In this document: positions 1-55,940 of the stretch, piece after piece
How the letters are laid out: every line of letters begins with the position of its first letter
Numbering within the stretch: position 1 is the first letter of the stretch
Assembly (NCBI RefSeq): GCF_988243305.1
Contig: NZ_OZ547136.1
Direction: 5' to 3' (one strand)
Length of the DNA: 64,000 nt
Notes under the pieces: generated by a model
Databases searched by the model: none
What the model was told of the DNA's origin: nothing
What the model saw: only the letters and a program-made list of their open reading frames with translations
Made by a program: the position numbers and the translations under genes

Positions 1-153
1 AAACTAATACGAAATTCTCAACACACTTATCCACTTGAATTTGGCTTGCATCCGCAAAAACCAGATCACCGCCATTAAAATAGCGATATTCACCATTAAC
101 CATGGTGAGAATATATTTATGTCTTGCGTACGCAATTAGACAATTACCATGTA
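1..153 (-). CDS. gadX: AraC-family acid-resistance regulator GadX, N-terminal fragment (gene runs off the left edge of the window)
   Basis: Reverse complement of 1..153 translates from ATG at 153 as MQPLHGNCLIAYARHKYILTMVNGEYRYFNGGDLVFADASQ..., recognised as the GadX N-terminus; lies directly downstream of gadA as in the gadAX operon. Confidence 0.8.
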
Positions 154-463
154 GTGGTTGCATAGTTGACTTAATATTACATAAACATATTACTGTTTAT
201 TAATGTAGCACGCCGCCCTCTTAAGTCAAATTGATTGATAAATAAATTTTAACGAAGCGGGAAAACAGGATGATAATCTACGGGCAGGATGACTGGATTT
301 ATAATACAAAAGGCGTGCTTAAGAACGCAGTGAAATTAATAGCAAGCAAATAATACCTTGTAGTGACATTAAAAATATCCGTTACATTGAATAAACATTC
401 ATACAACATATATCTTATCAACACGATGAATAGACAGCCAATATATTATTGCGATTAATAAGC

Positions 464-510
464 AACCGAATGCCCAACTGTTTTTTAAAGGTTGGGCATT
501 CGGTTTTTAC
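464..510. terminator. Hairpin immediately 3' of gadA (aaccgaatgcccaac / gttgggcattcggtt) flanked by A/T runs; candidate bidirectional intrinsic terminator
   Basis: Perfect 15-bp inverted repeat with 12-nt loop and T-run on the plus side, 13 bp beyond the gadA stop. Confidence 0.6.
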
Positions 511-522
511 AACGTTATGTTA

Positions 523-1923
523 TCAGGTGTGTTTAAAGCTGTTCTGCTGGGCAATACCCTGCAGTTTCGGGTGATCGCTGAGATATTTCAGGGAGGCTTT
601 GTAGTCTTCCAGCAACAGTTCAGCAAAGTCCATTTCGAAGCCGCGACGACACATAATGCGCATCACCACGATGTCGGTGGCTTCACCGCCGAGAGTGAAG
701 GCCGGAACCTGCCAGCCGCGCAGACGCAGACGTTCAGAGAGGTCGTACAGGGTGTATCCCGGATCTTCACCCTCTTTCAGTTTGAAGCAAACCGCCGGGA
801 TGCCTTCGTCCGGGCGACCGGTACAGATGAACTCATACGGCCCCAGTTTGGCGATTTCATCCGCCAGATAAGCGGCAACCTGGTAAGAGGCGTTCTGTAC
901 TTTGGTATAGCCTTCACGACCGAGGCGCAGGAATTCATAGTACTGTGCAATTACCTGACCCGCCGGGCGGGAGAAGTTGATGGCGAAAGTCCCAATCTGA
1001 CCACCGAGGTAGTCAACGTTGAACACCAGTTCCTGCGGCAGCGCTTCTTCATCACGCCAGATAACCCAGCCGCAGCCCAGCGGAGCCAGACCGAATTTAT
1101 GGCCTGAAGCACTGATCGATTTCACACGCGGCAGGCGGAAGTCCCAGACGATATCCGGGGCGACGAACGGTGCCAGGAAGCCACCGCTGGCGGCGTCGAT
1201 GTGCATGTCGATGTCGATACCGGTGTCGGCCTGGAATTTATCCAGCGCATCGTGCAGCGGCTGCGGGAACTCATAGTTACCGGTATAGGTCACGCCGAAA
1301 GTCGGCACCACGCCGATGGTATTTTCGTCGCAGGCTTCAATCATGCGTTTCGGGTCCATAAACAACTGACCGGGGCGCATAGGGATCTCACGCAGCTCCA
1401 CATCCCAGTAGCGGGCAAATTTATGCCAGCAGATTTGTACCGGACCGCACACCAGGTTTGGTTTGTTGGTCGGCTTACCTGCGGCTTCCATACGCTTGCG
1501 CCAACGCCATTTCATCGCCATCCCGCCGAGCATACAGGCCTCGGAAGAACCAATGGTGTTGGTGCCAACGGCCTGACCATTTTTCGGCGCAGGCGCATGC
1601 CACAGATCGGCAACCATGTTTACGCAACGCAGGTCGATGGCTGCAGATTGCGGATATTCTTCTTTGTCGATCCAGTTTTTATTGATCGACAAATCCATCA
1701 ATTTATGGACGTTTTCGTCGTCCCAGGTCTGGCAGAAAGTGGCCAGGTTCTGACGAGCGTTGCCATCAAGATATAATTCATCATTGATAATCTGGAATGC
1801 GACATCATCGCGCATTTCGTGCAGCGGAAATCGTTTTGACTCCGCGATAGTAGAAATGGCCTTTGCGCCAAAACGTGAATCGAGTAGTTCTGAGCGGAAA
1901 TCCGTTAACAGCTTCTGGTCCAT
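523..1923 (-). CDS. gadA: Glutamate decarboxylase alpha (PLP-dependent), 466 aa
   Basis: ORF track 523..1986; canonical start [19 protein letters not shown] at the internal ATG (1923); PLP-lysine motif [13 protein letters not shown]; flanked by gadX and ccp, which distinguishes gadA from gadB. Confidence 0.96.
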
Positions 1924-2002
1924 TTCGAACTCCTTAAATTTATTTGAAGGCAATAAAAAAGTAGGATTTATCCGCAATGGAAGCAAGGCATTACAGGCTT
2001 AA

Positions 2003-2022
2003 TTTAAATAACAAAATCCTAA
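2003..2022 (-). promoter_or_regulatory. GAD box (GadE/GadX-RcsB binding site) in the gadA promoter
   Basis: Minus-strand sequence TTAGGATTTTGTTATTTAAA is an exact match to the 20-bp GAD box consensus as I recall it, about 80 bp upstream of the gadA start. Confidence 0.8.
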
Positions 2023-2133
2023 GCAGAAAAACGACTTTTTATAATATAAACATTTAACATGATAATATTAAAAACAGACTTTATTATCGCAATAAAAATC
2101 ACCCGAACATTCCTGTTCGGGCGATTAAATTAA

Positions 2134-3531
2134 TTATTGTTTATCCTGCATATACGGCGTGTAAACCCCGTTCAGACTGTGCAGGAAAGCTACGATATCA
2201 TCCACATCCTCCTGCGGCAGCTCTTTGCCTACCTGATAGCGCAACATCAGTTTCACCGCCCCGTCCAGCGTCGGCACATCACCGCGATGGAAGTACGGTG
2301 CCGTTAGTGCAACGTTACGTAAACCGGGTACTTTCTGACGCAATTTATCGCGCTCTTCTTTAGTAACATTCATACGACCAATATCCGCCGCCGTAATTTC
2401 ACCAAAGTTAAAGTCTTTTTTCAGCCCCAACGGTTCGAAGGAACGTCCGCCGAGAATAATACCACCATGACAAGTTGCACATTTATTATCTTTAAATAAT
2501 TGATAGCCTTTTTTCTGTTGTGCCGTCAGCGCATTCTCATCTCCACGCAACCATTTATCAAATGGGGAATCCGGCGTAATTAATGTTTTCTCAAATTCAG
2601 CAATGGCATCAGTAATATTTTCGCCACTGAAACCTTGCGGATAGACTTCGAGGAACTGCGCTTTAAGCTGCGGATCTTTTTCCAGCTTAGCAATAATTTC
2701 GTCCCAGGATTTCGACGCCATTTCAATCGGATTCAACGGCGGTCCACCAGCCTGATCCTGCAATGTTGCCGCACGACCATCCCAGAACTGCTCAACGTTA
2801 AATACTGAGTTAAATACCGTCGGCGCGTTAATCGGCCCCACTGCGCCACCAACACCAATAGATGTTTTTCTGCCATCGACGCCCCCCGCATTCAACGCAT
2901 GGCAATGAGCGCATGAAATGGTGCTATCAGCCGATAAACGGGGATCGTGATACAGCGCAAAGCCCAACGCCACTTTTTGCGCATCGGTAGGCAGTTTTTG
3001 CGGGATGGGCTGCACCGGTTCATTGCGATGCTCCGGAGCAGTATCATTACTGGCGTAATATTCTGCGCGTTGTTTTGCAATCCAGGCGAGTATTTCCGCC
3101 CGCTCTTCATCACTTACCTTACCCGCCCAGTGTAGCGCGGTATAACGCGTTGGTGGCATGGTTTCATACTGCATCACCCATTCAATCTTATTCAGATCGC
3201 TTTGCGAAACGGGTTTATCAGCCAGCAGAGCCGCACGCACGGCCTCGAGGTTAAAAGATTTATATCCAAGCTTAATGTCGTAATCCATCAACTGTTTCGC
3301 GCCAGGAATATAATAATAGGCGGGTAATTCTGCCGAAGGCGTGTGGCAATAGTCGCATCCTTTTTCGCGGAGAAAGCCTAAAACCTTATTATTTTCACTG
3401 ACAGCAGATGCCTGAACATCAGCCTGTTTACTGCGTTTATTATCGTGGTACCACACATAACCAGATAACCCTAAATAGCAAATCGCGACGCCAGCCAGGC
3501 CGATCGCGGTAATACGTGAGACCATTTTCAT
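2134..3531 (-). CDS. ccp: Cytochrome c peroxidase (di-haem, periplasmic), 465 aa
   Basis: ORF track; two CxxCH haem motifs (CDYCH, CAHCH) and a third (CATCH); N-terminal signal anchor; recognised as YhjA/Ccp. Confidence 0.95.
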   Translation of the reverse strand: MKMVSRITAIGLAGVAICYLGLSGYVWYHDNKRSKQADVQASAVSENNKVLGFLREKGCDYCHTPSAELPAYYYIPGAKQLMDYDIKLGYKSFNLEAVRAALLADKPVSQSDLNKIEWVMQYETMPPTRYTALHWAGKVSDEERAEILAWIAKQRAEYYASNDTAPEHRNEPVQPIPQKLPTDAQKVALGFALYHDPRLSADSTISCAHCHALNAGGVDGRKTSIGVGGAVGPINAPTVFNSVFNVEQFWDGRAATLQDQAGGPPLNPIEMASKSWDEIIAKLEKDPQLKAQFLEVYPQGFSGENITDAIAEFEKTLITPDSPFDKWLRGDENALTAQQKKGYQLFKDNKCATCHGGIILGGRSFEPLGLKKDFNFGEITAADIGRMNVTKEERDKLRQKVPGLRNVALTAPYFHRGDVPTLDGAVKLMLRYQVGKELPQEDVDDIVAFLHSLNGVYTPYMQDKQ

Positions 3532-3905
3532 TATTCTTCCCTCACGGTGGTGAGTTATTGTGACCCAGAAAATTTTCCAGAATGCTGCAAACGTCTCTGC
3601 GAGACAAAGCCATCATAAAAAACAGGGAGATACGCTTTTTGATAGGAATCAATCAATTACATGAATATAAACTATCAATAAGATAGCCTGTGCCTATTAT
3701 CCAGATCAGGAATGGCATAACATGATTGCGGCGAGAGCAGGATTGAATGTTCTGAAAATGAAAAACAACACGAAATCTGTATTTTTATAAATTCCATGGA
3801 TATTAGTGCGTTATATTTTTTGACAGGTAAATAAACGTGATCCACCGCACGCTTTGTCGCCCACAAGGCGGAGCGAATGACTACCCTTAAAGAAAAGCCC
3901 GATAA

Positions 3906-5585
<1,680 letters not shown>

Positions 5586-5590
5586 TATTT

Positions 5591-5630
5591 TTACAGCCAG
5601 CCGCTAACTTCCTGCTGGCTGTAAAATTAT
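5591..5630. terminator. Hairpin between convergent treF and yhjB (acagccagc / gctggctgt)
   Basis: 9-bp inverted repeat with A/T-rich flanks in the 50-bp gap between the two stop codons. Confidence 0.55.
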
Positions 5631-10543: not shown

Positions 10544-10581
10544 TGAACAAAGCACACTTTGCCAACACTCTAAATCTGTTT

Positions 10582-10610
10582 AATTGCCGGATGTCAGACA
10601 TCCGGCAATT
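10582..10610 (-). terminator. Perfect hairpin (aattgccggatg tcaga catccggcaatt) just 3' of the yhjG stop
   Basis: 12-bp inverted repeat 5 bp beyond the yhjG stop codon. Confidence 0.5.
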
Positions 10611-10614
10611 ATCA

Positions 10615-43597: not shown

Positions 43598-43630
43598 CAA
43601 AAAAGCCTGCTCGTTGAGCAGGCTTTTCGA
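43598..43630 (-). terminator. proK intrinsic terminator (agcctgctc gttg agcaggct, U-run on the minus strand)
   Basis: 9/8-bp GC-rich stem followed by TTTTTT directly 3' of the tRNA. Confidence 0.85.
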
Positions 43631-52232: not shown

Positions 52233-52275
52233 ATGCCAGGTGATGCAGAAATCACCTGGCATTCTTCAGTTTTCC
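52233..52275 (+). terminator. yiaD intrinsic terminator (atgccaggtgat gcagaa atcacctggcat followed by T-rich tract)
   Basis: Perfect 12-bp inverted repeat beginning 9 bp after the yiaD stop. Confidence 0.8.
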
Positions 52276-55619: not shown

Positions 55620-55940
55620 TCCCAGCCTCCTGTGTTGATTTCCAACGAGTAAGAGGCTAACCTTATGGTGTTCAGGCATAGGGTAGCCTCACTTTGATTT
55701 ATAGTCAGGTGGGGCTTTTCTCTGTCTGCCTTTCGGTGAATACCTGAGACAAACAGTCTCAAGCACCCGCAGCTATTCTAGCTTAATAAGTTCGTTTCTT
55801 CTCCTTGATATAATCCTAAAAAAATCTCATAAAATTAATATATGAGACAATCTTTATTCAGCAGAAGATTATTAAAGGTTGCTCTATTATTTAGCGATAA
55901 AAAAGCCTGCCAGATGGCAGGCTTTTTAATAACGGCGTTA

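Follow-up and report, generated by a model that had tools for sequence, protein, structure and literature searches.

What does the long, perfect hairpin between gadA and gadX do, given that its U-run lies on the strand opposite to gadA? We addressed this question in a window of 64,000 nucleotides, the whole stretch of DNA analysed here, whose first 6 kb hold part of gadX, gadA and ccp (yhjA) on the minus strand, followed by treF on the plus strand (Table 1). Window position 1 corresponds to about position 3665648 of K-12. Sequence comparison of the first 2.7 kb with K-12 MG1655 revealed 97% identity and an unchanged gene order, and at least 80% of the same 2.7 kb finds a match in 5389 complete E. 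coli genomes, which annotate the same genes. Judged by its sequence, the window strain is an E. coli strain other than K-12. The order gadX-gadA-ccp-treF is also that of K-12 MG1655, in keeping with the original prediction that the boundary of the acid-resistance island follows the reference arrangement. The region is a standard E. coli gadA locus with nothing out of the ordinary, and the GAD box, the promoter layout, the gene order and the co-transcription of gadA and gadX have all been published already. The significance of the locus as such is small, these being textbook acid-resistance elements that are unchanged in the window strain.

Table 1. Positions of the features of the gadX-gadA-ccp region in the window.
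Feature	Position	Strand	Basis and remarks
gadX, 5' part (AraC-family activator; the window begins inside the gene)	1..163	-	ATG at 163; translation MQPLHGNCLIAYARHKYILTMVNGEYRYF...; RefSeq annotation of matching genomes
gadA-gadX spacer, 359 bp, 32% G+C	164..522	-	gadX ATG at 163
Candidate gadX promoter (TTGACT, 16-nt spacer, TG, TACATT)	202..229	-	consensus scan
Perfect 15-bp hairpin with a 12-nt loop, starting 18 nt past the gadA stop codon	464..505	.	inverted-repeat search, folding
T5 run, canonical terminator tail on the plus strand only, antisense to gadA	504..508	+	sequence and terminator score
gadA (glutamate decarboxylase A, 466 aa)	523..1923	-	ATG at 1923
gadA core promoter (-35 TTGCTT, 1986..1981; -10 TACTTT, 1963..1958)	1958..1986	-	17-nt spacer between the two hexamers
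RcsB box GCGGATAAATCCTA, adjoining the -10	1962..1975	-	description in PMC2887963
GAD box, GadE/RcsB heterodimer binding site	2003..2022	-	exact 20-mer TTAGGATTTTGTTATTTAAA
GadX/GadW-type site AAGTCTGTTTTTAATATTAT	2062..2081	-	17/20 to the published 20-mer
ccp (yhjA) intrinsic terminator (13-pair stem, GGAA loop, UUUUUAUU tail)	2088..2126	-	terminator scan, inverted repeats, folding
ccp (yhjA), cytochrome c peroxidase	2134..3531	-	ORF and RefSeq annotation of matching genomes

The GAD box of the gadA and gadBC promoters was reportedly described by Castanie-Cornet and Foster in 2001. A perfect 20-bp copy had been predicted in the gadA upstream region of the window, and the 20-mer TTAGGATTTTGTTATTTAAA is indeed present there with all 20 positions matching (2022..2003, minus strand), as the sole match in the 64-kb window at up to three mismatches and with no match in any of 100 shuffles of the sequence. 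The asymmetric GadE site quoted by Seo et al. is this very sequence (Seo et al., 2015, PMC4918353). In K-12, 16 bp separate the box from the gadA -35 downstream of it, and the RcsB/GadE heterodimer that binds it leaves a footprint spanning -50 to -76; the binding of GadE and RcsB and their need for activation are experimental results obtained on the identical K-12 sequence (Castanie-Cornet et al., 2010, PMC2887963). In the window, the same 16 bp lie between the end of the box (2003) and the first base of the -35 (1986), and with a start site near 1950 the box fits the published footprint, such that the comparison with the published gadA promoter map finds it at its literature position. The exact box recurs in all 11 promoters of gadA or gadB contained in the fetched loci (K-12 gadB and 10 gadA promoters), even in the divergent strain E69, whose GadX is only 76% identical. 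Compared with the published K-12 element, the 20-mer, the distance to the -35, the RcsB box and the upstream GadX/GadW-type site are all alike and no difference was found: the window carries a published element in another strain.

The remainder of the gadA promoter conforms to the same layout, and positions 1796-2089 are base-for-base identical to K-12. A second RcsB box has been described directly upstream of the gadA -10 in K-12 (PMC2887963), and its counterpart in the window contains the left half of the GAD box in inverted orientation, a relation that we also found independently as an inverted repeat. The GadX/GadW-type site, scored against the 20-mer consensus quoted in PMC4918353, is the sole match of its type in the window, with none in shuffled sequence. 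Along the gadA strand in its 5'-to-3' direction, the order is thus ccp terminator, GadX/GadW site, GAD box, -35, RcsB box and -10. The ccp terminator, whose stem occupies 2126..2097 and is followed by a U-run, reached +6 to +28 in a d'Aubenton-Carafa-style score, which was computed with modern energy parameters and serves as a rough guide only. The ccp terminator differs from that of K-12 at 2101 and 2105, and each of the two strains has one G-U pair on the minus-strand RNA where the plus strand would have an A-C mismatch. These differences pair on minus-strand RNA only, which fits a function on the ccp mRNA strand alone.

At the other end of gadA, the spacer that separates it from gadX is 10 bp shorter than in K-12 (369 bp), the K-12 stretch TGTGTGATGT (K-12 3665924-3665933) being absent from the window strain at 276/277. 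The original prediction had given the spacer as 154..522 and 370 bp, which is the K-12 value; that start and that length do not hold for the window strain, and the placement of the hairpin inside the spacer does. The stretch from 312 to 404 is the most diverged of the region relative to K-12. Closer to gadX, we infer from consensus matching that the TTGACT...TACATT block may serve as the gadX promoter; the block is kept in four other Escherichia lineages. A perfect 9-nt inverted repeat, TTGACTTAA / TTAAGTCAA at 166-174 and 221-229, has one copy overlapping the candidate gadX -35 and the other adjoining the gadX start codon. Inside the gadX coding sequence, a little to the left of window position 1, two strong 3' ends have been catalogued, at K-12 3665222 and 3665532 on the minus strand, with about 90,000 reads each, in a list that contains no 3' end for gadA (Adams et al., 2021).

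The hairpin proved to be the perfect 15-bp structure that had been predicted: its arms, AACCGAATGCCCAAC at 464-478 and GTTGGGCATTCGGTT at 491-505, are 15 nt each and 100% complementary. No other perfect hairpin in the 64-kb window is as long, and 30 first-order Markov simulations yielded a mean of 0.1 stems of at least 12 bp and none of at least 15 bp. The predicted energy is -27.3 kcal/mol on the gadA-sense strand (z = -5.8) and -29.4 kcal/mol on the plus strand (z = -4.7). The U-run lies on the non-coding side, likewise as predicted, since on the plus strand the stem runs directly into GGUUUUUAC (T at 504-508, UUUUUAC in the RNA), whereas the tail on the gadA-sense strand is GCUUAUUAAUCGC. 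As in a terminator, a G+C-rich stem-loop is located shortly 3' of the gadA stop codon; the sense tail that follows it (GCUUAUUAAU) is not a U-rich tract. With the same rough score as above, the plus strand reached d = +11.9, comparable to the neighbouring ccp terminator, whereas the gadA strand failed in both registers (d = -43.5 in the 15-bp register and -16.5 in the 13-bp register). The 100 nt downstream of the hairpin on the sense strand contain 10% C and 17% G; a Rho-loading site downstream of the hairpin was rejected on account of this C-poor composition. A small open reading frame over the hairpin (449-574, 41 aa, TTG start) was without support. An Rfam search of window positions 1-4000 in E-value mode returned only noise, the best match overlapping the hairpin being 'sar' at 437-505, with E = 4.2 and 18 bits against a gathering score of 43.

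To which RNA could such a hairpin belong? The original prediction had tied it to the 3' end of gadA mRNA, and this is answered in part: the curated Term-seq catalogue of Adams et al. (2021), a single data set that covers three growth conditions, lists no 3' end on either strand and no Rho region at the hairpin (K-12 36661xx), and the hairpin is therefore not shown to be the gadA 3' end. Our literature search found no mapped gadA 3' end and no named gadA terminator. On the opposite strand, no gene or RNA is annotated at the hairpin in K-12, and the main text and supplements of a dsRNA-capture study hold nothing at this locus. The genes on either side are known to be connected: gadA and gadX are described as an operon (PMC2887963), and gadAX and gadAXW transcription units are widely cited in the literature. 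Since gadA and gadX are co-transcribed, polymerase must read through the hairpin in at least some cases, in accord with the lack of a U-tail on the sense strand. In E. coli, stable stem-loops without U-rich tails mark mRNA 3' ends and protect them against PNPase and RNase II (Dar and Sorek, 2018, PMC6061677), and intercistronic stem-loops raise the transcript abundance or the expression of the upstream gene (PMC10667835).

A scan for GadX with one genome per species returned five Escherichia loci, which allowed us to compare what follows gadA in other lineages. Locus L010 has the same type of hairpin, with further compensated two-sided changes and one bulge. In Escherichia sp. E1V33 and E. whittamii the spacer differs and starts with an unrelated 10-bp ACCUGCAUGC hairpin, and strain E69 has yet another unrelated hairpin, with a 14-bp UCUCAGCCCCGGCU stem and -30 kcal/mol. 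At the paralogous position in K-12, an 11-bp GUCCCGAAACG stem stands between gadB and gadC. The hairpins of these lineages and of gadB start 15-25 nt past the stop codon, and for E69, E1V33, E. whittamii and gadB the sense strand lacks a U-rich tail and scores as a non-terminator. Unrelated hairpins without a sense U-tail at the same position identify a strong, U-less hairpin 3' of the decarboxylase gene as the recurring property. The U-run on the opposite strand is confined to the E. coli type among the hairpins compared, so that the conserved property is the hairpin and not an antisense terminator. In E1V33 (L011, about 985-1015) and at the equivalent place in E. whittamii (L012), a canonical sense terminator, GATCAGAAT-GCTA-ATTCTGGTC followed by T7, is located about 70 nt past gadA.

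For E. coli itself, we searched 5426 complete genomes with 91 nt spanning the hairpin and found them in 5409, at a median of one place per genome; a repeat of the REP/BIME or MITE type was rejected, the hairpin being single-copy per genome. Pair 477:492 is A:T in the window type and G:C in the K-12 type, which is the majority, and this amounts to a two-sided compensatory change. In the D10 type, seen in 4 of 60 evenly sampled rows (a share from which we estimate about 7% of genomes), the same pair is G with T, so that the plus-strand RNA has a G-U pair and the sense RNA a C-A mismatch. The B2-like type has three changes in the gadX-side arm, owing to which the stem of each strand contains a mismatch, a wobble and a bulge, one of each, with energies of about -24 and -26 kcal/mol, and it probably accounts for the roughly 1088 genomes (about 20%) in the 90-95% identity band. 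Imperfect stems are perhaps present in about a quarter of genomes. In strain M1, a G-to-T change makes the stem shorter and extends the T-run to 6; apart from M1, the gadA-side arm and the T-run are invariant in all sampled E. coli haplotypes, and the T-run is also present in L010. A count over ten E. coli-type sequences gave 94% paired cells and two pairs with two-sided changes, and the covariation score was reached by 11 of 500 shuffles, a weak signal from ten sequences that are too close to one another. As an indicator of the strand on which the hairpin acts, the G-U wobble is uninformative, with D10 favouring the plus strand and the B2-like type having one wobble per strand. In E. coli EF7-18-51 (L009, 1088-1860), an IS1 has entered at the base of the gadA hairpin on its gadX side, and the adjoining AraC-family gene (gadX) is annotated as truncated.

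From these observed sequence features, positions, conservation and recurrence we infer a protective or leaky-barrier role, and we favour, with moderate confidence, the reading that the hairpin is a U-less protective 3' stem-loop of gadA mRNA and a leaky barrier within the gadAX unit. On the gadA-sense RNA it would form a stable 3' stem-loop that has no U-tail. Lacking that tail, it would stop RNA polymerase inefficiently, so that a single gadAX transcript would still be made, and it would block 3'-to-5' exonucleases following termination or cleavage further downstream. Such protection may favour a stable monocistronic gadA mRNA and thereby a high ratio of decarboxylase to regulator. The status of the hairpin as a stability outlier, its near-universal presence in E. 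coli, the A:T to G:C pair change and the unrelated hairpins of other lineages argue for the protective role; the empty Term-seq catalogue, the weak covariation, the frequency of imperfect stems and the C-poor downstream sequence argue against it, and the invariant T-run on the plus strand is unexplained by a protective stem-loop. The hairpin resembles the U-less 3' stem-loops (PMC6061677) and the intercistronic stabilisers (PMC10667835) in being very stable, just past the stop codon and free of a U-tail on the mRNA strand, and in standing between partly co-transcribed genes, in several lineages and after gadB. It differs from them in having no 3' end in the catalogue of Adams et al. (2021), in not being C-rich just downstream and, in E. 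coli, in its opposite-strand U-run. The recurrence after gadA and gadB suggests that a 3' structure helps to set a high ratio of decarboxylase to GadX or GadC. The odd orientation of the hairpin and its recurrence are small observations that should not surprise specialists.

The invariant T-run points to the alternative that the E. coli hairpin is mainly, or additionally, an intrinsic terminator on the plus strand, which would stop antisense transcripts before they enter gadA or form the 3' end of a small unannotated plus-strand RNA; we regard this as unlikely. Its anatomy is canonical, with a stem of 13-16 bp followed by UUUUU, and its score of +12 compares with -16 to -43 on the sense strand and falls within the range of the ccp terminator. 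The right arm and the T-run are kept in every E. coli haplotype and in L010, M1 even having six T residues, and the common D10 type keeps a pair on the plus-strand RNA that is lost on the sense RNA. The antisense transcripts would start in the AT-rich spacer upstream of gadX or inside gadX, and promoter-like sites on the plus strand do occur upstream, at 137-166, 249-277 and 418-447, the last of them kept in L010, but these are consensus matches in DNA of 32% G+C. Adams et al. (2021) list neither a plus-strand 3' end nor a Rho region, K-12 has no annotated plus-strand gene or RNA, Rfam gave no match above noise and the dsRNA-capture study, main text and supplements, is silent on the locus. Moreover, the B2-like haplotype weakens both strands equally, and the hairpins of other Escherichia lineages and of gadB lack the antisense U-run. 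We consider it quite doubtful that the E. coli-type hairpin is a working antisense-facing terminator that insulates gadA from the AT-rich, H-NS-type spacer, or that it is the 3' end of a small unannotated plus-strand RNA; in the latter case, the gadXW region would have a second antisense RNA beside GadY.

A conventional but weak Rho-independent gadA terminator, at which transcription would stop at an imperfect U-rich tail, UUGCUUAUU, and read-through would give gadAX, is an improbable reading of the hairpin and scores poorly. The stable G+C-rich stem does begin 18 nt past the stop codon and is preceded by an A-run, opening the two basal A-U pairs exposes the tail UUGCUUAUU with 6 U in 9, and the corresponding tail in L010, UUUCUGAUU, is more U-rich. 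Yet the score falls below zero in either register (d = -16.5 and -43.5), a simple terminator scan did not call the structure (partly owing to its 8-nt loop limit), no 3' end is catalogued at the hairpin (Adams et al., 2021), and a U-rich tail is wholly absent from the counterparts in E69 and after gadB. A palindrome without any role at the RNA level, be it a neutral relic or a feature of the DNA itself (for example a cruciform, a mobile-element remnant or a palindrome bound by a protein), could accommodate the common and apparently tolerated imperfect variants, the IS1 at the hairpin edge in one strain and the missing 3' end (Adams et al., 2021), but it is very unlikely, as the hairpin is single-copy and hence not a REP, BIME or MITE and has undergone compensatory A:T to G:C changes, and as other lineages and gadB have independent, unrelated hairpins at the corresponding site, which argues for selection on structure.

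The hairpin also invites comparison with bidirectional intrinsic terminators, in which an A-run, a hairpin and a U-run follow one another. The gadA hairpin is like them in that an A-run precedes it on the gadA strand and so provides the U-run of the opposite strand, but its flanking genes are co-directional and not convergent, and it has one proper U-run only, on the side without a known transcript. Other perfect hairpins of 12-14 bp are present in the window at 5589-5626, 10581-10611, 43601-43627, 52233-52262 and 55900-55927. Three of these, at 5589-5626 (between the convergent treF and yhjB), 43601-43627 and 55900-55927, are flanked by A-runs and T-runs on either side in the manner of bidirectional terminators.
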